A stretch of DNA of 46,837 nt from a phage, in the sequence record PZ502447.1, one strand, 5' to 3'. The position numbers and the translations under genes were made by a program. Positions 4,213 through 46,107 of this stretch are shown here, piece after piece. Numbering within the stretch: the stretch's first letter is position 1; each line of letters starts with the position of its first letter. The notes beneath the pieces are model-generated. The model did no database searches. It was not told where the DNA came from and saw nothing but the letters and a program-made list of their open reading frames with translations.

Positions 4213-4234
4213 AAAAAAACCTCCCGAAGGAGGC
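4213..4234 (-). terminator. intrinsic terminator
   Basis: Minus-strand hairpin CCUCC-UUCG-GGAGG followed by a U7 run (plus-strand A-run 4213-4219), 3' of ORF 4254..4727. Confidence 0.55.
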
Positions 4235-4739: not shown

Positions 4740-5864
4740 TTATTTCTTAATTTTAGCTAAACGAGCACGTGGGTCTAATTTCTTAGGCTCATCGGCGCTG
4801 TCAGATTTGTCGGAAGCAGTAGTTGCTTTACGTACTTCAGCCATTTTATCAGATTCTTTGGCAATGTCGAATGCCGCGTCGATGTATGCGTCAGACTTCT
4901 CACTAACATCAAGACCGGAGACTTCTTTAACGTAAGCAACTTTAATGCCTTTAGCATCCAGGCCATCAGTCTTAACACCAGCTTCAGTGGCTACAGTAAC
5001 CAGAGCGGCAAGTGCTTCAGCGTCAGCTTTGGCAGCTTTGACTGCTTTCTCGATTTCAGCGGGCATTGCGTCTACTTTGGCTTTCAGTGCGTCACGCTCA
5101 GCTTCAATGGTATCAGCTTTAGCTTTGGCGTCATCTGCGTCTTTCTTGATAGTTGCAATGTGTGCGGCAACTTCTGGAGCGATTTCGAACTCCTGAGCGC
5201 CATCCAGTTTAATCTTAACCATTTCTTTAACATCCTCTTTAATAGAATCAACGTTGTCAGTATACGGGTTTTCTTGCTGCCCGTCCATATTTAGCTTAGC
5301 AATTCCAGCCCTACCCCTGAACACCATGGCTAAGTGGTTTACCTTAATGTCTCGCTGGATTGCGTCGAACTCTTGCCAGTCAGGAGGTATGTCGAGCCCC
5401 TGTGTATTGTCACTTCTAAGGACATAATTACCAGTTGCAGGATCACCCCAACCTGGTGTCTCGTCAAGGACTGCCGAGTAACCTACAGATAATTCCTTAG
5501 CGTTACCTGAGCGAGCCTCGTCAATAGCTTCTTGAGAGTATACGACAATTGGCGCAATTACCGTACTTCCTAGAGCCTCAGCTTTACCAGTTACCGAGCC
5601 GACCACCACGTCTTTAGCGTTATCGGAGTTTACAAAGACGTGGTCAAGAGTCATTGGCTTACCCTGGTAACTGCCTAGCGACTCCTCTTTGAAGACTTCT
5701 TCTGCTGGCCTGAACTCTCGAACAGTCGAACCGTCCTCTGTGAAATAAACCTGCACACCAACCCTTGCTACTACTGGCGTATCGACGAGAAAACCATTCT
5801 CGTCAATGGTGGCTTTGAATGTTGCTGTATCAAAGCGATTCTTATACATCCCAATTCTCCTCAC
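4740..5864 (-). CDS. head scaffolding protein (possibly scaffold/protease-like)
   Basis: 374 aa ORF with a long Ala/Lys/Asp/Glu-rich predicted coiled-coil C-terminal half (KAKADTIEAERDALKAKVDA...), between head morphogenesis and capsid genes. Confidence 0.55.
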   Translation of the reverse strand: MRRIGMYKNRFDTATFKATIDENGFLVDTPVVARVGVQVYFTEDGSTVREFRPAEEVFKEESLGSYQGKPMTLDHVFVNSDNAKDVVVGSVTGKAEALGSTVIAPIVVYSQEAIDEARSGNAKELSVGYSAVLDETPGWGDPATGNYVLRSDNTQGLDIPPDWQEFDAIQRDIKVNHLAMVFRGRAGIAKLNMDGQQENPYTDNVDSIKEDVKEMVKIKLDGAQEFEIAPEVAAHIATIKKDADDAKAKADTIEAERDALKAKVDAMPAEIEKAVKAAKADAEALAALVTVATEAGVKTDGLDAKGIKVAYVKEVSGLDVSEKSDAYIDAAFDIAKESDKMAEVRKATTASDKSDSADEPKKLDPRARLAKIKK

Positions 5865-8300: not shown

Positions 8301-8347
8301 ACTATAAGCCATCCTTGGCGGCGCGTCTTTAGCAAAACGTGCTATTT
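8301..8347 (-). promoter_or_regulatory. conserved promoter module (inverted-repeat motif plus -10-like TATAGT)
   Basis: Minus-strand AATAGCACGTTTTGCTAAAGAC, then about 22 nt, then TTATAGT, then leader ACGAAAACGAGAGG, then ATG of 7919..8272; overlaps the terminase large subunit stop. Confidence 0.5.
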
Positions 8348-10422: not shown

Positions 10423-10618
10423 ATCGTCACCTCGTTAAGTTAGTGCCAATTATCTCATTGATTGGGCCGATTCCTTTAACAAAAAGTGCTAAATTAGCCA
10501 TAATTTCACCAATCCAACCATCACGCCAATTAAGAATCCAGTTGTGAAGCACATTGACGCTATCATGTAATATCCCAATAAAGCCTTAATAACTTTTATC
10601 ATACCGACCCCTATGTTC

Positions 10619-11143
10619 TTACAGCTTACCAATCACAGACTCAAGCGCTTCCTTCATCGTATCTACGTCGTTAGCTGAAGAGTTGTTGCTGATAGTAATC
10701 TCCTGCGGCTTGTCGATTCCAAGCTCTTTGGAAATCATGCCCGGGTTAACGATGCCAGATGCAGCCAACTGATATTTCTGCTCACGAATCACTGAATCAA
10801 TGAACGCAATCACCTCATCATAACCAGCAGACTTTCGCCATTTCTCGATGGCGCCATGGGTAACACCGCAGTAAAGGCAGAAACCTGTTAGCGTGAAGAC
10901 TCGCGGCTTATGCACCAGGCTCTCGGTCACTACACCCTGGAAGCTAGCCGTCTCAATTGCCTTGATCGCCTGACTCTCTGCCCATGAGAAGTATTTCACA
11001 GCCAGGTCAAATAGCTGCTCTGGTGTCATGATTCGGTTTTTGGCTAGCGTTGTAATGTCTGAGTACTTTTTATTGTACATGGCTTTAAAGTTGCCAGAGC
11101 GGACCTTTTCTTGCGCCTGACTGGTGAAGTTTTCGTCTTTCAT
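10619..11143 (-). CDS. terS: terminase small subunit
   Basis: 174 aa, ATG with GGAGG SD; helix-turn-helix-like segment FTLTGFCLYCGVTHGAIEKW resembling small-terminase DNA-binding domains; located upstream of the terminase large subunit. Confidence 0.6.
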   Translation of the reverse strand: MKDENFTSQAQEKVRSGNFKAMYNKKYSDITTLAKNRIMTPEQLFDLAVKYFSWAESQAIKAIETASFQGVVTESLVHKPRVFTLTGFCLYCGVTHGAIEKWRKSAGYDEVIAFIDSVIREQKYQLAASGIVNPGMISKELGIDKPQEITISNNSSANDVDTMKEALESVIGKL

Positions 11144-11680: not shown

Positions 11681-11756
11681 TGGTGTTCCGCACTGGACTC
11701 GAACCAGTAACTAAGACTTAGGAGGTCTTTGCGTTATCCTGTTACGCCAGCAGAAC
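11681..11756 (-). tRNA. tRNA-Arg (anticodon CCU)
   Basis: 76 nt on minus strand folds as a cloverleaf: acceptor GUUCUGC/GCGGAAC (one G-U), U8, D-stem GCGU/ACGC with GG in the D-loop, anticodon stem AAGAC/GUCUU, loop CUCCUAA (U33, CCU, A37), T-arm ACUGG-UUCGAGU-CCAGU, discriminator A, encoded CCA. Confidence 0.8.
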
Positions 11757-15179: not shown

Positions 15180-15362
15180 TTTCGTTTTCCTTTGTGCCTC
15201 TCGTTTCGATGAGGTAATTATGCCATCCTTGGCGTCATATCGTTAGGCAAAAAGTGCTATTTCCCACTCAGTAGTAATTTAGCTTTCCGATATAAATCCA
15301 TAGCCACCTCAACCTCATCCTCACTGTACCGCGGATGGTATGGTAGTCTACTACCATACCCA

Positions 15363-15884
15363 CTATTTAGTCTCCTTAATCATTTCTTGGTATGCGTTAA
15401 TCATTGATACTGCACCATTAAGTTCATCACCTTCAAGACCAGCGACGCTTGGTGATAGTTTTAACAATCGAGCCTTGAACCTTTCAATGGTAGCCGCCTC
15501 CTTCTCTTGCTCTGCTTTGCTTCTTGAGCCGGATTTTACAGCGCCAGGAACCAGGCTAAGTGATGCGCAGTATGTCTCACTCTCGCCCTCAAAGTCGGTA
15601 AAACTAAGTGAGAACCTTGAGCGCACGTCAGCCGCCTTAATCTCAGGCATTCGGCTTACGGTGTTTGAAACGTATGACGCTTTTAGTTTTGGCATGTGGT
15701 ATTCACCACCAGGTAGAACCTCCTCACCACTTAGCGATACGAACGTCTCACGACTCATGCCGAAGTATTGACGAGCAATCATGGTCACAGGGACTGTGCA
15801 CACTTTGTCTTCTGACTTGAGCGCCTGACTCGCCATGTATCGAATGATTTCACCCAAACTTACTGCTTCTTTATGTTCTGACAT
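15363..15884 (-). CDS. hypothetical protein (first leftward early gene)
   Basis: 173 aa ORF, ATG with AGGAG SD, first gene transcribed leftward from the large control region. Confidence 0.55.
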   Translation of the reverse strand: MSEHKEAVSLGEIIRYMASQALKSEDKVCTVPVTMIARQYFGMSRETFVSLSGEEVLPGGEYHMPKLKASYVSNTVSRMPEIKAADVRSRFSLSFTDFEGESETYCASLSLVPGAVKSGSRSKAEQEKEAATIERFKARLLKLSPSVAGLEGDELNGAVSMINAYQEMIKETK

Positions 15885-17150: not shown

Positions 17151-17314
17151 TGCTTTTACCATCTGAGATAAACTATTTCGATCTGGAAATAATTAGTGCT
17201 TACAGCGGAAAGGGTTGGCCTTGCGGGGACTGGTTTAACGAGGACCTGCTTGAGTCTCACGAGATTATGTTGAAGGCAATTGAGAAGGCCAGAAAAAATA
17301 GCACTAATTGCTAA
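17150..17314 (+). CDS. hypothetical small protein (54 aa)
   Basis: Hand-translated ORF MLLPSEINYFDLEIISAYSGKGWPCGDWFNEDLLESHEIMLKAIEKARKNSTNC; its stop lies inside the promoter motif. Confidence 0.35.
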   Translation: MLLPSEINYFDLEIISAYSGKGWPCGDWFNEDLLESHEIMLKAIEKARKNSTNC

Positions 17315-21268: not shown

Positions 21269-21298
21269 CGCATGCAAATCTATGTTTTTGATGTGTTA

Positions 21299-21469
21299 AT
21301 CTGCGATAATAAATTCCACCAAAGAGCCATCAATCGGCGCAAGGATGTGAGTCATATCGTCACCGTAAACTTTGTAGTAACCGTCACCTAGAGACTCTGC
21401 GCTGTACGGCTGGTTTTCGGTGAACGGCAGTGTCTTTGAGTTGTTTTTAACGCAGTATAATTTAGTCAT
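21299..21469 (-). CDS. hypothetical small protein (57 aa)
   Basis: Hand-translated ORF MTKLYCVKNNSKTLPFTENQPYSAESLGDGYYKVYGDDMTHILAPIDGSLVEFIIAD with AGAGGA SD; lies between a promoter module and a terminator. Confidence 0.45.
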
Positions 21470-21540
21470 TTTTGAATCCTCTGTTGTTTTCGATGTAGTA
21501 ATTATGCCGGATTACTCCGGCGATTGTTTAGCAATTCGTG
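21470..21540 (-). promoter_or_regulatory. conserved promoter module
   Basis: Minus-strand AATAGCACGAATTGCTAAAC, then CATAAT, then leader CATCGAAAACAACAGAGGA, then ATG of 21299..21469. Confidence 0.55.
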
Positions 21541-22088
21541 CTATTTATTACGTGCATTACCAAAGCAGAGGTTCCATCAATATCACCATCTACAACATGA
21601 ACGTCAATTTCTCTTGCGCAGACACCGCGAATGTAGGAGCGGCTATCTCCATCAAAAGTATAGCCAGGCCTAAAAAGTCTAATCAAAGTAACTTCAACCC
21701 CTGAATCAATGAGAGTATTAATCTCGCTAGCGAAGCCACCATCAGCACAGATATAGCAACCATCACCAAGTGATTGCGCTAGCCTTTTACCGAAAACATC
21801 ATCACCAAAGACTGGCTTCATAACTGACTCACTAATCCAAATCATAAATTCACGAACCGTCATTCCACCAAGAAATTCATGTGGTGATTCTTTGTACTCT
21901 CGGTCATCGTAATTCTTAATAAATTCATCAAACTCATCGCTTGATAGTATTCCTTTTGCAACATTAAACATTGGTGACTTGAATGAAACCTTATCCTTGC
22001 AAATTCCAAGATTAACAATGATATCTGCAACTGTATCTTTTCCAGCACCAGGGGGTGCATTAAGGATGATTAACTTTTTCATTTTCAC
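21528..22088 (-). CDS. deoxynucleoside monophosphate kinase-like P-loop kinase
   Basis: 186 aa; P-loop NAPPGAGKDT and overall resemblance to T4 gp1 dNMP kinase (GKDT..AD, RPG motifs). Could alternatively be a polynucleotide kinase domain. Confidence 0.55.
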   Translation of the reverse strand: MKMKKLIILNAPPGAGKDTVADIIVNLGICKDKVSFKSPMFNVAKGILSSDEFDEFIKNYDDREYKESPHEFLGGMTVREFMIWISESVMKPVFGDDVFGKRLAQSLGDGCYICADGGFASEINTLIDSGVEVTLIRLFRPGYTFDGDSRSYIRGVCAREIDVHVVDGDIDGTSALVMHVINSTNC

Positions 22089-24890: not shown

Positions 24891-24974
24891 TTTCTTTCTC
24901 TCTTTGTGTGTTTCGTTTCGATGAGTTTATAATACACCAACTCACCAATTCGTCTTTAGCAATTCGTGCTATTT
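24891..24974 (-). promoter_or_regulatory. conserved promoter module
   Basis: Minus-strand AATAGCACGAATTGCTAAAGAC, 22 nt, TATTAT, then leader CATCGAAACGAAACACACAAAGAGAG, then ATG at 24890. Confidence 0.55.
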
Positions 24975-28485: not shown

Positions 28486-29405
28486 ATTACGATAAGAATG
28501 AAGTTATACCTAAGATGGCCGGATTGTGGAAATCATTTTATGCAAAGGAACTTGGTTGGAATGATAGACACCTAAGTAAGAAGCACGGACCATGCCCATA
28601 CTGCTTTGGCACTGACAGATTCAGATTTACCGACGAAATAGGCAGTGAAAAAGGGAATGGCGCGGCAGTTTGTTCGAAATGCGGAAGTGACTCCGGTATA
28701 GGATGGGTCATGAAGTGCACTGGATCGTCCTTCGCAGATTCAGTAAATTTGCTTGGTGACTGGCTGAACTTAACACCAATTGAGGTTATAGTTAAAGCAA
28801 ACAAGCAAGCATCAAGAACCCAGCTCTACAAAATGGGCGCCCAGATTGACCACGAAAGATGTTTAGAGATTATGGAAAGAACAGAAAGAGTAGAATCAAC
28901 TCCACTCAGTATATACGAGGGTATCTATAGCGAATTTGGTTTTGATGTTGGCAGGACGAAATCAGGCGAACTAATACACGCAGTACCGTGCTTTATGGCT
29001 TATAGTGACGGCATATCAGATGATATGTGCAATGTAATGTTTATCAATGAAGATGGAGATGTTAGCTATGCTGCAAAAGATTATACTCGCCAGTCTGTTT
29101 CTATTATTGGCACCTTTAAAGATGATGAGTACGCTTATCTGGTCGATAATTGGATTGATGGTGTTCGCGTTCATCTTGCTACTGGAAATCGCTGCGTGCT
29201 TGTTTGCCACTCCAGCTACAACATGGAAATGGTTGCTTATGCGCTTATGAACTACAAGTTACGCGTCGCTTGTACTCGCAACTCTTTTGATTTACTTGCC
29301 GTTGCTGACGATCGCAATCTTGATATTGTAATTCCAAATGATGGTAATTTTTTCAAGTCAGGCATAAGAAAGAGAATATACAAGGCAAACGAATTACTAG
29401 ACTAA
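28482..29405 (+). CDS. DNA primase (zinc-finger type)
   Basis: CxxC...CxxC zinc-binding motif (CPYCFG...CSKCGS) near the N-terminus. Start placed at ATG MNYDKNEV overlapping the HNH stop; the ORF track starts it 33 nt earlier. Confidence 0.55.
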   Translation: MNYDKNEVIPKMAGLWKSFYAKELGWNDRHLSKKHGPCPYCFGTDRFRFTDEIGSEKGNGAAVCSKCGSDSGIGWVMKCTGSSFADSVNLLGDWLNLTPIEVIVKANKQASRTQLYKMGAQIDHERCLEIMERTERVESTPLSIYEGIYSEFGFDVGRTKSGELIHAVPCFMAYSDGISDDMCNVMFINEDGDVSYAAKDYTRQSVSIIGTFKDDEYAYLVDNWIDGVRVHLATGNRCVLVCHSSYNMEMVAYALMNYKLRVACTRNSFDLLAVADDRNLDIVIPNDGNFFKSGIRKRIYKANELLD

Positions 29406-29426
29406 CCTCCTTCGGGAGGTTTTTTT
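29406..29426 (+). terminator. intrinsic terminator after primase
   Basis: Hairpin CCUCC-UUCG-GGAGG followed by a U7 run, immediately after the primase stop. Confidence 0.65.
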
Positions 29427-32021: not shown

Positions 32022-32026
32022 AAAAA

Positions 32027-32050
32027 GCCCCGAAAGGGGCTTTATCTTTT
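32027..32050. terminator. bidirectional intrinsic terminator
   Basis: Hairpin GCCCC-GAAA-GGGGC flanked by an A-run upstream and a T-run downstream; between the plus-strand stop at 32021 and the minus-strand stop at 32052. Confidence 0.65.
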
Positions 32051-32051
32051 A

Positions 32052-32537
32052 TCAGTAGTAAAGATGTTCCGCTTGCTTTCTTGCCTTTAATGCGGACTCA
32101 AACGTTTCGAATCGTCCTAGATGTATTTTTCTACCGTTTACAGTTATGGACGCATCGTATTTTCCCTTATTAAAATGTACACCACCGCACCCCGTCTTAT
32201 TGTTTACTCTTACACCTAAATTGTGCATGTTGCCTGTTCTGTTGGTTTTCAGTAGGTTTGCGTAGGCATTATTTGCTCTATTCCTGTCAATATGGTCAAT
32301 TTCAATATCACCACTCAAAGAACCTTCAACGAAGGCAACCGCAAGCCTGTGAGCTTGGAATCGCTCTCCGTTGATGTTTATGCCTATGTATCCATTCCTA
32401 AGCGAACCTGAATTCGAACCTACATCTACACGCCGCGATGTGGGAATAATCCATGAAAAGATCCCTGATTCTGTACCGTAGGATAGGTGACGCATTGCTG
32501 CGTCAACCACATCTTTTGTTATGTCTTTGTATTTCAT
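32052..32537 (-). CDS. HNH homing endonuclease
   Basis: 161 aa; IDHIDRNRANN HNH core and NKTGCGGVHFNKGKYDASITVNGRKIHLGRFETFESA AP2-like tail. Confidence 0.8.
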   Translation of the reverse strand: MKYKDITKDVVDAAMRHLSYGTESGIFSWIIPTSRRVDVGSNSGSLRNGYIGININGERFQAHRLAVAFVEGSLSGDIEIDHIDRNRANNAYANLLKTNRTGNMHNLGVRVNNKTGCGGVHFNKGKYDASITVNGRKIHLGRFETFESALKARKQAEHLYY

Positions 32538-32540
32538 GCG

Positions 32541-32969
<429 letters not shown>

Positions 32970-32981
32970 ATTATTTCTCTC

Positions 32982-32996
32982 TTAATGCTGGGGCCG
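32982..32996 (-). other. intercistronic UUCG-tetraloop hairpin
   Basis: Minus-strand GGGGC-UUCG-GCCCC between the Erf stop and the SSB start, with no U tract; the same hairpin with the same TAATT(T)AA context recurs at 42825-42839. Confidence 0.55.
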
Positions 32997-33009
32997 AAGC
33001 CCCGTTAAA

Positions 33010-33660
33010 TTAGAATGTATCGATTTCTTGAGATTGCACTTCAACTTTTTCTTCTTGAACAGACTTTTGTGCAACCTGCTTAGGTTTTGCTGGGTTAAAG
33101 CCATTAGTTGCATTGGCCTGAATCTCTGCCTTGCGCTCGATAATGTGAGGCTCAAGCACTAACCAGCCGGCTGAATCAAGTGACTGCTTCGCCTCTTTGT
33201 AAACATCACGGAGGTCATCAAGAGTACTGCACTTAGCCAAGTCTTTCTTGAATGAGTTGATGCCTTTAACTGCTAACTGACCATCATCATCTGCCTGGCT
33301 TAAACCTAACGCCGCTGTGATTGCGTAACGGCGAGCGTATGTAAGTGATGACCCATAACCTTGAGCATCTTGCTTACTGATTGGGACTATGGTCAGGAAA
33401 CTAACCCACTCTCCAGATTCTGCATGGTAAACTGTTGTTTCAACCTTAATACGAGTGCTTACATCATCATCAATCATCGACTGAAACATCACCAGTCCGC
33501 TATCAGCCAATCCTGGCTCTACAGCTGCTAAAACATCATCTAAAGTAGCGTACTTATTCTTGAGGTGTGAGTTCTGCTTAGACTTTTCAGCCTTAGCAAA
33601 CTTTGATTTAGCCTCGAATAACGCCTTCAATACTTGCTTGTTTTGCTCAGAAGTTTTCAT
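33010..33660 (-). CDS. erf: Erf-family single-strand annealing protein
   Basis: About 216 aa from ATG MKTSEQ (GGGGA SD; the ORF-track start is a GTG inside the promoter -10). Erf-like core ATLDDVLAAVEPGLADSGL. Confidence 0.7.
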   Translation of the reverse strand: MKTSEQNKQVLKALFEAKSKFAKAEKSKQNSHLKNKYATLDDVLAAVEPGLADSGLVMFQSMIDDDVSTRIKVETTVYHAESGEWVSFLTIVPISKQDAQGYGSSLTYARRYAITAALGLSQADDDGQLAVKGINSFKKDLAKCSTLDDLRDVYKEAKQSLDSAGWLVLEPHIIERKAEIQANATNGFNPAKPKQVAQKSVQEEKVEVQSQEIDTF

Positions 33661-33737
33661 TCCCCATCTCTCTTTCGTTTCGATGGGGTAATGATACCCC
33701 ACCTGTTAATTTTGTCTTTAGCAATTAGTGCTATTTT
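33661..33737 (-). promoter_or_regulatory. conserved promoter module for recombination genes
   Basis: Minus-strand AATAGCACTAATTGCTAAAGAC, 22 nt, TATCAT, then leader CCCATCGAAACGAAAGAGAG, then ATG of erf; overlaps the exonuclease 3' end. Confidence 0.55.
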
Positions 33738-36848: not shown

Positions 36849-36855
36849 AAGAAAA

Positions 36856-36871
36856 GGCCCCGAAAGGGGCC
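36856..36871. terminator. bidirectional terminator hairpin between convergent genes
   Basis: GGCCCC-GAAA-GGGGCC; the minus-strand side is followed by UUUUCUUUU (3' of J); the plus side has a weaker T tract. Confidence 0.55.
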
Positions 36872-36878
36872 TAATCAT

Positions 36879-41672: not shown

Positions 41673-42428
41673 TTAGTTCTGGTTATTCTTGGCTTGCAAG
41701 CTAGCGGAGGCACAACCTCCAAATGATAGCTGGTTGTTTTCACCAAACCTTAACTTACATGCATCAACAGTTCCGGCGCAGAAATCCAGGCCAGGGTCAT
41801 CAACCGGATTATTGTCTTTATCAAAGTATCGATTCCCGGCATAATCACAACCGTTACCACTACGATACCAGCCACGAGAAGCCCAATGGCATACTGACTG
41901 GACTAACCTCGCAGGAATATAAATACCATCCATGTCAATTGGACTAGATAGCTCAAAAGAAGCAGTTTTGTAGTCAACCTGCTTTGGTCGCTCAATAAAG
42001 TAAACCATCTTACGATAATCGCCATCTGCAATGCTGCCATCCTCATTGATATTATCCTTGATGGTAACCCAGATTGTCACCTTAGCCTGAACCATACCAT
42101 TATACTGACGGATTAGCGCTGAAACAGCCTGGTCAACGTTTGATAGAATTAGCGTGAGTTTGTTTGCTTTGCCGTCAGAAGTTAGGTTAATTCCGCTAAT
42201 ACCGAATGGCCTTGCTCCATATTCTTCACCACGAAATGTAATTGTCTTGGCTGGCAGTGGCTGGCCAGAGGATTGTGATTGCATGATTTCTTCAGGCGTG
42301 TATGAGATGTTCTCACCATGGAACCTGTAAACCCTTGCGCCAAACTTACTGCCGTCAACCTCAATAAGCGTAACCACCTCACCAGGGAAAAGTGATTGAA
42401 GCTGGTTCTCAAACTTTACACTTGCCAT
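41673..42428 (-). CDS. minor tail protein (lambda L-like)
   Basis: 251 aa; C-terminal Cys cluster (C..C...C...C) as in L-family tail tip proteins; sits between M and K. Confidence 0.65.
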   Translation of the reverse strand: MASVKFENQLQSLFPGEVVTLIEVDGSKFGARVYRFHGENISYTPEEIMQSQSSGQPLPAKTITFRGEEYGARPFGISGINLTSDGKANKLTLILSNVDQAVSALIRQYNGMVQAKVTIWVTIKDNINEDGSIADGDYRKMVYFIERPKQVDYKTASFELSSPIDMDGIYIPARLVQSVCHWASRGWYRSGNGCDYAGNRYFDKDNNPVDDPGLDFCAGTVDACKLRFGENNQLSFGGCASASLQAKNNQN

Positions 42429-42466
42429 ATTCTCTCCAATAAAAAAAGGCCCACATGAGCCTTAGT

Positions 42467-42814
42467 TTAACTCATTGACGTGAAAACTTCAGTAAATTGC
42501 ATACTAACAGTCTGAACTTCTTTTGTGCTCGGAGAGACGCTAATGCTATCCTGCTGAATAACAAAAAGTTTTAGCTCACCCTGCGGCGTAGTCCATGCGA
42601 AAGGTTTTACGATATGGTCAAAGCAGAAGTTCATTACTGCCTCCCACTCACGACCAACGTAGCTAACCGTGTAAGTCCTTTTGTTTGTCCTGTACCCACC
42701 AGTTCCACGCTGCTGGAATCCATTCCCAAATGATACAACTCTGACGTTATTCTGGTTTGAGAATGATAATCCAGCCTGAACGTTCAAGCACCAATTAAAA
42801 GTTTGCAATGCCAT
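42467..42814 (-). CDS. minor tail protein (lambda M-like)
   Basis: 115 aa ORF immediately downstream of the tape measure gene. Confidence 0.6.
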   Translation of the reverse strand: MALQTFNWCLNVQAGLSFSNQNNVRVVSFGNGFQQRGTGGYRTNKRTYTVSYVGREWEAVMNFCFDHIVKPFAWTTPQGELKLFVIQQDSISVSPSTKEVQTVSMQFTEVFTSMS

Positions 42815-42824
42815 TTAAAATCCT

Positions 42825-42839
42825 TAGGGGCCGAAGCCC
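42825..42839 (-). other. intercistronic UUCG-tetraloop hairpin
   Basis: Minus-strand GGGGC-UUCG-GCCCC between the tape measure stop and the M start; duplicate of the element at 32982-32996. Confidence 0.55.
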
Positions 42840-42845
42840 CATTAA

Positions 42846-45818
42846 TTAGTTGTAACCGCGCAAGAACTGATACGCTCTGCCACCCTGTTGGAATGATTTG
42901 CTGATTTCCTCAGCCACGATAACCTTAACTCCAGATTCTATCGCCTTAGCATCATTTCCGCCACCGATTCCAGAGTTTACGTTAACCGTCACACCACCAA
43001 CACTGACATTAGTACCGCCGACAACCCCACCATTAGCATAACCAGATGGCCCACCAACAGCACCTCCATTTGCATAACCGCGCATCAGCTTGTACAGATT
43101 CTTAACACCAATCCTGCTTGTAGCCTCTTTTGTGAATACAAACTCACCACGGTGAACAGTCCCAGCAGGTTGATATTTCCCGCCATCACCAGTATAACCT
43201 CCGCCAGCAAAACCAAGCGCACTACCAATTGAACCAATAGCGCCGCCAGTACCACCAAAACTACTCAGACTTGACTCAATGGCCTTAACAATTAAGAGTT
43301 GAGTCGCAATCCTGGCAATCTGTTTCAGGATCTCAACGGTAAAACTCCTGAAGTCTGCCGTGCCAGTTGTTACAAGGCTGGTGATCTGCTCGGTAATTCC
43401 GGTAAAGACGGAAGTGGTCAATTCACCAGCGATAGAGAATGCATCTGTCGCGCTCTCTGCCCAATTAGCGAAGGATGATTGCACACCAGCAAGCCAGTTT
43501 TCACGTAGCGCATCCTCTTGAGCATAGAAATTACGCCTGGCTTCTAGTAATGCCTGAAAATCAGTATCATCTACAGAACCACCTTTGTTTACCTGATTGG
43601 ATTGAAGTGCCTGAAGCTCTTTTGCTCTTTGCTTCTCCCTGTCAGATAAATTAGCAGCAAGTGAAAAATTATTTGCTTCATTTGTAATCTGCACAGTCTT
43701 CTTAAGGTTGTCATCAAGTAACTTGTTTGACCTCTCCTGAAGCACAATCTGGTCACCAAGTTCAGCCTTCTGTTTAGCCTGTTCAAGAATGATATTCTTC
43801 TGCGCAAGTAGCTTAGCCTGTGATTTTGTAAGCGTACCATCCGCTTGTCTTTGTTCAAGTATTGCAAACTTCGCTTCTTCCTGGAATAACTGCTTTCTTT
43901 CATTGCTTATTACATCATTTATCGTTCTGTGCTCTTGTAAGACCTTTAACTGAGCCTGAAGTGCAAGAACGCCAGATTCATAAGATAAAGTTAAATCCCT
44001 TTCTTCTTTTACAGCCTTTTTCCTCTCACTCCTTGCTTTCTTTATCGCATCATACTCATCGGCAAGAGCCTTCTTCCTTGCTGCAAACTCCTTATCGGTT
44101 GATGCATTATTGCCGCTAAGGTTGGTGTTATTGTTGTTCTCGACATAACCAAGCTCACCCTTCCTGATTCTCGCATCTCGCTCAGCTATGCTTTTTGCTA
44201 ACTCCTCATTTTGCTTCTTAGCTGCATCAACAATCTTTTGCTGCTCAGCGATTGCTTCATTGCCTAAATCGCCAAGTCCAGGTATTGACTGAAGTGTCTT
44301 GGTTGCTGCTATTGCAAACTCGCCCAATAGGATATCGCCGGAGTTTATTAACGACCTTATCTGCTCAATAGTCCCAGCAACAACGTCAGTTATTAAGTTA
44401 AGCGCCCCAAGCGTCCTTTTGCTTATATCATCCCAAATCTCACTTACAAACTTCCTGAAGCTATTCCATGCGCTCTCAAGAGGGTTAAGGCTTAGTGCTA
44501 CGTCTGCTAGCCTGTTTTCCATAACGTTAGCGAATAGCTCAGTAGCTGCGGTTACAGCCTCTGTTTCTCCAGCCGTCTTCCTGATATTCTCAATGTATTT
44601 CAATTGCCCAGACTGAAGGAAGTTGAACTGCTTATCGAGTGCAATCAGACCTTGAATTGGGTCATTTGTAATCTGATCAAAGTATCCAAGAATAGTTTTC
44701 GAGTCTGTTGATGTTACAGTTGCCCATTGTGCTGTCGCCTTGGTTATCTTATCTATCTGCGTAAGAGTCAGATTACCGTTTGCTACCAGGCTGTTAGCTA
44801 TCTCCTGGATAAGTCCGCGCGTGGCTAGTGTTGAACTCTCAATTCCATCAACAACCTGATTTATCTGCGCTGTCGACGTGATAGTTGAGTTGCCAACCAA
44901 TGTTATCGTTGATGCTAGTCCGCGAGTGTTCTTGTCAGCCTGATAAGCAGCAACACCAAGAGCGCCGAGGGCCAAGCCCAAAGTCCCAACAACTGCCGTT
45001 AATGGGTTAATGGCTGCCAGTGCGAACCTTGCGGTGTTAGCAATACCACCAAAGCTATCCTTAATCTGCCCACCCTGCTGAATTGCAATGAGCCAGATTG
45101 GGATGCCGCCAGCAAGAGATGTTCCGATATCTGTAATCTGAGCTGGTAGCTGTCGTATTGCTTGCTTGTACTGACCGGCGCTTAAACCTGACTTAACAAA
45201 AGCGGAGCTTTGCTTCTGTAACTGAACAGCAGATGCCTCGGCGGCCTTGCCAATCCTGTCGATAATCGGTGCCGCTTGGTCACTAACTCCGAGTTGAGCA
45301 GCCTTAAGTTGAAGTAGTTCAGTCCTTGTAAGGCTTGCTGCATTCGCCTCGTTCTCAAGAGATTGAATGAACTTTTGCGCGGCTGCTGTTGCCTTTTCTT
45401 TATCTATTGATGCCTGTAGTGCAGCTCGCCCTTCCTCGCTAAGAGCTGCTTTAGACCTGTTTAGCTTATTTATTTGAGTTTCAATAACAGAGCCAAGCCG
45501 GAAGAACTCATCATCAGGAACTATTCCAGATTCAAACGCCTTGTCTAATTCAGTTGCTGCTTTCTGAAGCTTCTGGAATTTAGCGGCAGTTGGGTCTATG
45601 ACTTGTTGAAGTGATGCGAAAGATTTGCGCTGCTCCTCAAGCTGCCTTGCGGTGTCCCTTGCTTGAGTCTTGGCTACAAGTTCGGCGTTGACGAAGCTAT
45701 TAATGCCTGTTGCAGCTTGCTCGTTTGCTTGCCTGAATTTCTGTAAGGATTGCGTACCCTTATCGACCTGAGCTACGTCGACGGCTAGCGTGATACCAGC
45801 AATTTCGTTAGTTGCCAT
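42846..45818 (-). CDS. tail tape measure protein
   Basis: 990 aa, largely alpha-helical/coiled-coil composition (Ala/Gln/Leu/Lys/Glu-rich) with a Gly-rich C-terminal region; preceded by the G/GT chaperone pair. Confidence 0.85.
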   Translation of the reverse strand: MATNEIAGITLAVDVAQVDKGTQSLQKFRQANEQAATGINSFVNAELVAKTQARDTARQLEEQRKSFASLQQVIDPTAAKFQKLQKAATELDKAFESGIVPDDEFFRLGSVIETQINKLNRSKAALSEEGRAALQASIDKEKATAAAQKFIQSLENEANAASLTRTELLQLKAAQLGVSDQAAPIIDRIGKAAEASAVQLQKQSSAFVKSGLSAGQYKQAIRQLPAQITDIGTSLAGGIPIWLIAIQQGGQIKDSFGGIANTARFALAAINPLTAVVGTLGLALGALGVAAYQADKNTRGLASTITLVGNSTITSTAQINQVVDGIESSTLATRGLIQEIANSLVANGNLTLTQIDKITKATAQWATVTSTDSKTILGYFDQITNDPIQGLIALDKQFNFLQSGQLKYIENIRKTAGETEAVTAATELFANVMENRLADVALSLNPLESAWNSFRKFVSEIWDDISKRTLGALNLITDVVAGTIEQIRSLINSGDILLGEFAIAATKTLQSIPGLGDLGNEAIAEQQKIVDAAKKQNEELAKSIAERDARIRKGELGYVENNNNTNLSGNNASTDKEFAARKKALADEYDAIKKARSERKKAVKEERDLTLSYESGVLALQAQLKVLQEHRTINDVISNERKQLFQEEAKFAILEQRQADGTLTKSQAKLLAQKNIILEQAKQKAELGDQIVLQERSNKLLDDNLKKTVQITNEANNFSLAANLSDREKQRAKELQALQSNQVNKGGSVDDTDFQALLEARRNFYAQEDALRENWLAGVQSSFANWAESATDAFSIAGELTTSVFTGITEQITSLVTTGTADFRSFTVEILKQIARIATQLLIVKAIESSLSSFGGTGGAIGSIGSALGFAGGGYTGDGGKYQPAGTVHRGEFVFTKEATSRIGVKNLYKLMRGYANGGAVGGPSGYANGGVVGGTNVSVGGVTVNVNSGIGGGNDAKAIESGVKVIVAEEISKSFQQGGRAYQFLRGYN

Positions 45819-45832
45819 GTTGTCTCCATAAT

Positions 45833-45856
45833 AAAAAAGCCACCCCGAAGGATGGC
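45833..45856 (-). terminator. terminator-like hairpin upstream of tape measure start
   Basis: Minus-strand GCCAUCC-UUCG-GGGUGGC (one G-U) followed by a U6 run; overlaps the GT stop codon. Confidence 0.45.
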
Positions 45857-46107
45857 TATTTCTTGGCGTTCATCATATCTAAGGCTTTAGCCTCAAGTAT
45901 TCTGATGTCGTTAAGTACCATTTCGTCATCATCTATTTTATAGACTTTGAACAAGAATGGAAGGCAATTATAATCAAGGCCTGTGGCACCGCAAGCCCCT
46001 ACTCGCCATTGAGTTGACATGGCACAGTACACATCCCAGCTTTGCATCATTGTTTCATCGAAGTATAACTCTTCAGGCTCATCACCTTCATAATCGGAAC
46101 GTTTCAT
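45856..46107 (-). CDS. tail assembly chaperone, T segment (expressed as G-T fusion by -1 frameshift)
   Basis: 83 aa ORF in the -1 frame relative to G; the frame entered after slippage at 46173-46179 runs without a stop into this ORF. Confidence 0.65.
   Translation of the reverse strand: MKRSDYEGDEPEELYFDETMMQSWDVYCAMSTQWRVGACGATGLDYNCLPFLFKVYKIDDDEMVLNDIRILEAKALDMMNAKK

Follow-up and report, generated by a model that had tools for sequence, protein, structure and literature searches.

Two identical copies of a small UUCG hairpin, GGGGC-UUCG-GCCCC, lie between genes of PZ502447.1, a complete T1-like siphophage genome (Drexlerviridae, closest to the Braunvirinae) whose entire stretch of 46,837 nt is referred to here as the window. 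Comparison with related phages supports the view that these hairpins are structures of the mRNA that have been selected for pairing. They are not intrinsic terminators, and their likeliest role, to which we give a probability of about 0.5, would be that of a barrier to 3'-to-5' exonucleases that protects the mRNA end of the upstream gene. The hairpins are real but ordinary, i.e., they are unannotated members of a long-known kind and do not represent a new class of mechanism.

Two identical hairpins at minus-strand gene junctions

The top nucleotide matches of the window are phages phiA2-1 (88%), ES, and TR2. All genes at both hairpin regions are encoded on the minus strand, and their names are confirmed by PHROG profiles; the gene calling used for the context of the transcription units was a crude greedy ORF pick, with errors in places. 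The features of the two regions are the following, in the direction of transcription.

Site 1, erf-ssb junction
33675-33733, minus strand: promoter-like element upstream of erf, with TAGCAC-N3-TTGCTAA, AAGACA-16-TATCAT, then CATCGAAACGA
33010-33702, minus strand: erf (Erf-like annealing protein), upstream gene (PHROG 155, E = 2.5e-48)
33004-33012, minus strand: erf stop codon UAA (33010-33012) and a 6-nt AU-rich spacer, UUUAAC, before the stem
32990-33003, minus strand: hairpin 1, GGGGC-UUCG-GCCCC, with a 5-bp all-G/C stem and a C(UUCG)G tetraloop, in the erf-ssb gap (exact match and folding)
32967-32989, minus strand: 3' flank AGCAUUAAGAGAGAAAUAAU, without a U tract
About 32977-32983, minus strand: SD-like AAGAGAG, followed by the ssb AUG (32967-32969)
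32541-32969, minus strand: ssb, downstream gene (PHROG 44 and PHROG 99 are cited for the ssb and HNH pair)
32052-32537, minus strand: HNH endonuclease gene, next after ssb (PHROG profile)
32024-32043, both strands: bidirectional terminator closing the erf-ssb-HNH unit

Site 2, tape-measure/M junction
45838-45857, minus strand: canonical terminator just upstream of the tape measure gene, CUUCGG loop and UUUUUU
42846-45818, minus strand: tape measure gene, upstream gene (PHROG 24, E = 1e-241)
42841-42848, minus strand: tape-measure stop codon UAA (42846-42848) and a 5-nt spacer, UUAAU
42827-42840, minus strand: hairpin 2, identical GGGGC-UUCG-GCCCC, in the tape-measure/M gap (exact match and folding)
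42812-42826, minus strand: SD UAAGGA (42821-42826) right against the stem, a UUUUAA spacer, and the M-like gene's AUG (42812-42814)
42467-42814, minus strand: M-like minor tail protein gene, downstream gene (PHROG 14)
42446-42463, minus strand: canonical terminator AAGGCUC-AUGU-GGGCCUU followed by UUUUUAUU, right after the M-like gene
41673-42428, minus strand: L-like protein gene (PHROG profile)

The true start of erf is probably at about 33660, and the erf homologues of relatives are annotated at 651 nt.

The exact 14-mer GGGGCTTCGGCCCC is found twice in the window, both times on the minus strand; when up to two mismatches are allowed, 0.11 matches are expected, and at least two copies occurred in 1 of 100 shuffles. 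As sense DNA, site 1 reads TTC-TAA-TTTAAC-GGGGCTTCGGCCCC-AGCATTAAGAGAGAAATAAT-ATG and site 2 AAC-TAA-TTAAT-GGGGCTTCGGCCCC-TAAGGATTTTAA-ATG, the corresponding RNAs being UAA-UUUAAC-GGGGCUUCGGCCCC-AGCAUUAAGAGAGAAAUAAU-AUG and UAA-UUAAU-GGGGCUUCGGCCCC-UAAGGAUUUUAA-AUG, so that the stem of both window copies starts 5-6 nt past the upstream UAA. A four-base UNCG loop, a closing C-G pair, and a Watson-Crick stem, which together define the UNCG tetraloop C(UUCG)G, are present at both sites. Folded alone, the 14-mer has a predicted energy of -9.6 kcal/mol and an ensemble frequency of 97%, and its helix is kept in the MFE and centroid structures of every context folded (56-121 nt, both sites); beyond an internal loop, the stem is predicted to extend by 3-4 weak A-U/G-U pairs.

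An earlier note on this DNA had reported a stable UUCG hairpin in the erf/ssb and tape-measure/M gaps and had proposed the folding of both; this observation is confirmed by the exact 14-mer, by the PHROG assignments of the flanking genes and by the predicted helix. The positions that it gave need correction, the offset being 8 nt for site 1 and 1-2 nt for site 2. Its interval 32982-32996 spans just half of the first hairpin; together with the stop codon, this element occupies 32990-33012. The note was also silent on the strand, which is the minus strand. It had called the hairpin duplicated, a misleading label, each copy being old at its own locus. The likeness between the sites stops at the stem: 3' of it, similarity between sites 1 and 2 is absent, and the common 5' flank amounts to the stop codon and 5-6 AT-rich bases only. 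The two sites are thus not a recent duplication, and a mobile repeat was rejected on the same grounds.

Other hairpins are present in the window. A third intercistronic hairpin that lacks a U tract, GCCGGA-GUAA-UCCGGC followed by AUAAUUAC, lies at 21506-21521 on the minus strand, between ORFs 21528-22088 and 21296-21469; its loop is of the GNRA type, which suggests that the class of putative read-through hairpins is not limited in this genome to the two UUCG copies. In a scan for perfect stems (5 bp or more, including 4 or more G/C pairs, with loops of 3-6 nt), the longest perfect stem was that of a 10-bp hairpin, GGTATGGTAG-TAGA-CTACCATACC, which is located at 15337-15360, just downstream of ORF 15363-15884 (minus strand), and has no U tract. 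When the window was scanned against Rfam, the sole match at the gathering threshold was a tRNA gene on the minus strand (11684-11756; RF00005, 58.9 bits), and neither hairpin was matched; in relatives, the matching early region has an annotated tRNA-Arg.

Conservation of the two hairpins in relatives

The comparison set consisted of 17 retrieved Drexlerviridae genomes or large segments, in which both gaps were located by tblastn, and of IMG/VR and metagenome contigs found via anchors in the flanking coding sequence. The metagenome scan, anchored on the erf C-terminus, provided 5 usable contigs; IMG/VR contains few Drexlerviridae, and a search of it with the SSB protein gave no matches. Three records entered in GenBank as "Campylobacter phage", namely E6 and A14a (Tempevirinae) and A110b (Braunvirinae), are ordinary Drexlerviridae genomes of the coliphage type, and their Campylobacter jejuni host labels look doubtful. 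The hairpins were annotated in none of the GenBank records examined.

At the erf-ssb junction, a hairpin follows the erf stop codon in 18 of the 18 genomes compared, as well as in further metagenomic contigs. These genomes span four subfamilies (Braunvirinae, Rogunavirinae, Tunavirinae, and Tempevirinae), and the hairpin is still there in the most distant of them, where Erf identity is down to 36-52%. The stem is GGGGC/GCCCC in Braunvirinae and Rogunavirinae, with UUCG, UGCG, UACG, UUAG, UUCU, UCAG, or UUAU as the loop. Elsewhere the sequence differs: T1 has GGGCGGC-UUAG-GUCGCCC, with C-G and G.U substitutions, TLS has CGGGGC-GUAAU-GCCCCG, and E6/A14a have GGGGCG-CUUG-CGCCCC, which indicates that the structure is kept at this site while its sequence changes. 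The GUGGC/GCCAC stem of metagenome contig L105 is another variant, which also arose independently at the second locus (see below). The stem begins at a fixed distance from the stop codon, 5-7 nt overall and 6-7 nt in every relative at the erf-ssb site, while its distance to the AUG varies at this site from 13 to 26 nt; this combination argues that the hairpin goes with the upstream gene, as part of its 3' end. In IME542, for instance, it is retained after erf with an HNH gene, not ssb, downstream. Judged from these sequences, the hairpin appears to behave as an end-piece of the upstream gene, with the placement of a terminator and without its release signal.

The tape-measure/M junction has a narrower distribution. 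GGGGC-UUCG-GCCCC directly followed by UAAGGAUU is kept in those Braunvirinae and Rogunavirinae in which the two genes are adjacent. Variants include a compensatory GUGGC/GCCAC in TR2, one G.U pair in Sd1, and one mismatch in SU57, and UAAGGAUU shows no variation among the aligned relatives with this junction (13 sequences; pairwise identity 1.00 over 12 genomes). Both the gap and the hairpin are absent from T1, TLS, E6, and A14a, and in phiA2-1, IME253, IME542, and ACG-M12 an HNH gene occupies the junction and the hairpin is gone; the hairpin is therefore dispensable at this site. The inserted HNH gene, a free-standing endonuclease gene, lies for instance at 10595-11142 of the phiA2-1 record and at 5150-5703 of that of ACG-M12. 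In the four relatives with this insertion, GGGGCUUCGGCCCC is replaced by a TAGCAC-like motif and another hairpin, AAGCCAAA-AGGA-UUUGGCUU, and the M gene starts within or just past the 3' end of the HNH gene.

The formal pair count, which omits E6/A14a and TLS as their stems are in a different register, gave 94.5% of cells paired at the erf-ssb site, with three cells in two pairs changed on both sides, a result that 2 of 500 column shuffles equalled. At the tape-measure/M site, 98.5% of cells were paired, with one compensatory change and one G.U pair (41 of 500 shuffles). Covariation support is only moderate, since the stem rarely varies. Mean pairwise identity at the erf-ssb site is 97% in the stem arms and 75% in the loop, with 59% in the upstream erf coding sequence, an underestimate as a 1-nt indel shifts some rows; at the tape-measure/M site it is 93% in the hairpin, 100% in the SD (UAAGGAUU), and 78% at the end of the tape measure gene. 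The earlier note had named conservation in relatives as a check on its idea, and the element proves strongly conserved, with compensatory changes, G-C having become U-A, at both loci.

Several observations point to the RNA, and not the DNA, as the level at which the hairpins function. Loops of relatives at both sites are mostly UUCG, UGCG, and UACG, more rarely UUAG, UUUG, UUCU, UCAG, and UUAU, and they are asymmetric: the loop is of the UNCG type on the sense strand only, the antisense loops being CGAA and CGCA. Moreover, all CUUCGG hairpins of the window (6/6) lie in the sense orientation. Sense-only UNCG loops, sense-only CUUCGG orientation and the compensatory changes thus argue together for a function in mRNA.

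Transcriptional context and possible roles

For intrinsic termination, a U-rich tract directly behind the stem is required. At both sites the GC-rich stem-loop is present (five G/C pairs) and the U-rich tract 3' of it is absent: a terminator scan of the window, which called at least 5 T in 8 bases beginning 0-2 bases past the stem, reported neither hairpin, their tails being AGCAUUAAGA and UAAGGAUUUU. The lack of a U tract, which the earlier note had pointed out, is thereby borne out at both sites, the UUUU run found 6 nt past the stem at site 2 being the SD-to-AUG spacer and not a terminator tail. No U tract was found at either locus in any of the Braunvirinae or Rogunavirinae relatives compared, and E6/A14a alone have a U-rich tail (UUUCUU) after the erf-ssb hairpin. 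Similarly, the ARNold-based annotation of CEB_EC3a and SU57 calls no terminators at the hairpin sites, and in the T1 record terminators are annotated ahead of the tape measure gene and behind gp37, with none at the hairpin-equivalent positions. Three features argue jointly that the hairpins are not intrinsic terminators, as had been suggested from the first inspection: the absence of a U tract is conserved, as is an A-rich 3' flank, and the hairpins lie inside units that are bounded by canonical terminators. An antisense terminator was rejected as well: in each of the tails GUUAAAUU and AUUAAUUA 4 of 8 bases are U, the loops are not stable tetraloops, and the scan did not call them.

About 15 canonical sense-strand terminators, i.e., a hairpin and a U run, are present in the genome. 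Four have a CUUCGG loop (16-35, 4220-4233, 29404-29421, and 45838-45857) and two, at convergent sites, have a GAAA/UUUC loop (32024-32043 and 36855-36872); by this count of about 6 out of about 15, the earlier statement that most terminators use UUCG or GAAA loops was too strong. The first hairpin unit is ordered as promoter-like element (33733-33675), erf, hairpin, ssb, HNH gene, and bidirectional terminator (32024-32043), and the second as terminator (45838-45857), tape measure gene, hairpin, M-like gene, and terminator (42446-42463), the last at a site whose equivalent is annotated as a terminator in T1. With such borders, these units fit the published picture of T1, whose late region is described as a set of modules with Rho-independent terminators on their flanks (PMC11447400).

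The promoter-like element upstream of erf has counterparts in the genome. The TAGCAC-N3-TTGNTAA motif is found in 15 copies in the window, versus 0.31 expected, mostly directly past stop codons in gaps (e.g., 33718-33733, 24956-24971, 21528-21543, and 8329-8344 on the minus strand and 17299-17314 on the plus strand). Several of these copies are followed by an inverted repeat whose loop contains a -10-like hexamer, and then by CATCGAAACGA, a sequence that itself occurs 8 times, versus 0.72 expected. From its sequence, the motif resembles a family of phage promoters that share a conserved upstream element, and it is possibly the counterpart of the "direct repeats" of TLS (PMC11447400).

If the hairpins are decay barriers within read-through transcripts, the stem-loop would form in the phage mRNA 5-7 nt past the stop codon of erf or of the tape measure gene, and E. 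coli RNA polymerase would mostly read through it, because no U tract follows the stem, the ssb or M-like gene being then co-transcribed. Once the transcript is cut downstream of the hairpin, PNPase and RNase II would be halted at the stem; the erf or tape-measure segment would thereby gain a protected 3' end and outlive the rest, so that the two halves of the gene pair would differ in lifetime. The rigid structure beside the downstream SD may in addition keep translation of the two genes independent. The REP element in malE-malF and the puf example are classical intercistronic stabilisers. Stable stem-loops without U tracts have furthermore been shown to mark steady-state 3' ends in E. coli and to protect from PNPase and RNase II (Dar and Sorek, 2018, PMC6061677). 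The anatomy of such stabilisers, i.e., a stable stem-loop inside a transcription unit and with no following uridines, is found at both sites, and it is from this anatomy and precedent that we infer read-through, the barrier function, and the gene that would benefit. A 5-bp stem is a modest barrier when compared to REP elements or terminator hairpins. In a mirror version of the same idea, RNase E may cut the AU-rich 5' spacer (UAAUUUAAC, UAAUUAAU), with the resulting hairpin-capped 5' end protecting the downstream gene; the anatomy fits protection of an upstream 3' end and of a downstream 5' end alike. Processing by RNase III was rejected, as it needs about 20 bp or more of dsRNA and the stem has 5 bp. 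Our literature search found no transcript-end, half-life, TSS, or expression study for any T1-like phage. The roles that the earlier note had put forward, in RNA processing, RNA stability, or differential translation, are accordingly putative.

Rather than RNA decay, the hairpins might serve translation. As an insulator or as a presenter of the RBS, each would block the sliding of post-termination ribosomes or free the SD from upstream pairing, and downstream output would be set by fresh initiation at the gene's own SD. Such a role would agree with site 2, where the stem abuts the invariant UAAGGAUU and where hairpin, SD, and AUG are conserved as one block, and with the recurrence in unrelated T-even phages of the order "stop, 2-4 nt, tetraloop hairpin, U/AAAGGAUUU, AUG"; general ribosome footprints add that a ribosome halted at a codon 5-6 nt upstream should need to melt the stem. 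However, when the accessibility of the SD/AUG region was modelled from partition functions, as its unpaired probability in three context sizes, no consistent direction emerged at either site between the wild type and deletion, arm-mutant, or A-U-stem versions. Since the SD distance is variable at the erf-ssb site, and since M is expressed without such a hairpin in T1, TLS, and the HNH-insertion relatives, we see in this role a minor possibility. That the hairpins are leaky intrinsic terminators or pause sites, which would stop a fraction of the polymerases and lower downstream transcription, seems distinctly unlikely. They do share with the real terminators of the genome a GC-rich hairpin just past a stop codon (and with four of these the CUUCGG loop), the UUUU run lies 6 nt past the site 2 stem, and the UUUCUU tail of the Tempevirinae E6 and A14a means that terminator-like and U-less versions coexist at the erf-ssb locus. 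Yet the first 6-8 nt past the window stems are AGCAUUAA and UAAGGA, below the threshold of the scan and passed over by ARNold, and the A-rich 3' flank is itself conserved in Braunvirinae and Rogunavirinae, which argues against a decaying terminator.

A function at the DNA level, be it as a protein-binding palindrome, as a hotspot for recombination or homing insertion, or as a shuffling cassette resembling the PeSL elements of T4-type phages, is extremely unlikely. The HNH gene that sits exactly at the tape-measure/M junction of phiA2-1, IME253, IME542, and ACG-M12, with loss of the hairpin, would be in line with it, as would the near-identity of 40-nt junctions in T1-like and T-even phages and the near-invariance of the stem. 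However, stable tetraloops are restricted to the sense strand, compensatory changes preserve pairing and not sequence, the HNH genes of these phages are found at many different intergenic sites, and the promoter that is the defining part of a PeSL is not attached (PMC4122927); no minus-strand promoter-like site was present next to either hairpin in our scan, and the PeSL cassette was consequently rejected as a candidate. More room is left for the sequence itself. GGGGC-UNCG-GCCCC is almost unchanged at two unrelated loci, in two subfamilies and in a T-even cassette, from which one could think of a sequence-specific signal, read by an RNA-binding factor of host or phage, or of a portable junction module that unrelated coliphages have exchanged; we regard both as very unlikely. 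A portable module, if real, could for example tune the stoichiometry of tail genes or seed recombination and HNH insertion. Since the stem hardly varies, with few compensatory events among the roughly 25 distinct sequences, sequence as well as pairing might in any case matter, and the constancy of the stem at two unrelated loci and in the T-even junction is the one feature that could raise the importance of these hairpins.

With the decay barrier as the preferred reading, T1-like phages would use two grades of hairpin punctuation, true terminators and conserved read-through hairpins that predictors miss. For annotators and phage engineers, this implies that such gaps are not neutral spacers, and that they should be neither deleted nor mistaken for terminators. 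The erf-ssb hairpin, present in the four subfamilies sampled, moreover provides a testable handle on relative expression in the short operons of a small virulent phage.

Comparison with known systems

Among the structures with which the hairpins can be compared, the intrinsic terminators of this genome and of T1 are the nearest at hand. Both are GC-rich hairpins directly past a stop codon, and four terminators of the window share the CUUCGG loop; terminators, however, have a U tract and stand at the end of a gene pair, whereas the hairpins are internal and have none. The polarity of the arms is also different, GGGGC...GCCCC in the hairpins versus GCCCC...GGGGC in several terminators. The PeSL of T4-type phages are likewise conserved intergenic stem-loops, found at sites of gene insertion or replacement (PMC2839356, PMC4122927), but they consist of a stem-loop joined to an early sigma-70-type promoter (PMC4122927), which the hairpins lack; the TAGCAC-N3-TTGNTAA family is a closer analogue of PeSL in this genome.

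The protective 3' stem-loops of E. coli that lack U residues (PMC6061677) resemble the hairpins in being stable, in having no following uridines, and in lying within a transcription unit or at its end. For these stem-loops and for REP elements, 3' ends have been mapped and nuclease dependence has been tested, while the present hairpins are known from their sequence. REP elements are, in addition, imperfect palindromes of about 35-40 nt with a consensus of their own, versus a 5-bp stem here.

The strongest likeness is with the mRNAs of T-even phages, for which Tuerk and colleagues, in 1988, reportedly described intercistronic hairpins with C(UUCG)G and GNRA tetraloops. The UUCG tetraloop was in fact first noticed in phage T4 mRNA through this class of hairpins (PMC4371310). 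As here, the T-even hairpins have a G/C stem with a UUCG loop closed by C-G, are in the sense strand without a U tract, and start a few nt past a stop codon, with a U/AAAGGA SD following at once and then the next AUG. They differ in their setting, which is that of Straboviridae there and of a Drexlerviridae siphovirus here, and in their flanking genes. Site 2 matches the T-even order of stop, hairpin, SD, and AUG in full, the SD being 6 nt further downstream at site 1. A review of post-transcriptional control in T4 does not treat the hairpins of late-gene junctions and, to our knowledge, T1-like instances have not been described before.

A 41-nt query taken from site 2 matches 649 phage records, of which roughly 170 look to be Drexlerviridae, a figure deduced from a separate search, in which the tape-measure/M region had 173 matching records, and most of the rest, among the matches listed, look T4-like. 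In Enterobacter phage vB_EluP_RZH (Karamvirus), the junction of the tail-fibre genes 37 and 38 (1203-1241) reads TAATTAAGGGGCTTCGGCCCCTAAGGATTTAATATG / TAATTAAGGGGCTTCGGCCCCTAAGGATTTAATATGGCA; its stem is identical, and the junction as a whole differs from site 2 of the window at few positions. The same junction in T2 has GAGGGC-UUCG-GCCCUC followed by UAAGGAUUUUUAAUG, and that of wac and gene 13 in RB14 has GGGGCC-GCAA-GGCCCC, thus with a GCAA loop, followed by AAAGGAUUUUAAAUG. The near-identical T-even junctions, 37/38 and wac/13, read "stop, hairpin, UAAGGAUUU, AUG GCA". The likeness between T1-like and T-even junctions reflects either convergence on an optimal design or horizontal exchange, and the near-identical T-even junction accordingly points to a shared design rule, or to such exchange, for the gene junctions of coliphages. 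As the same succession of stop codon, hairpin, UAAGGA, and AUG is common in T-even phages, the two hairpins described here are of a known kind.
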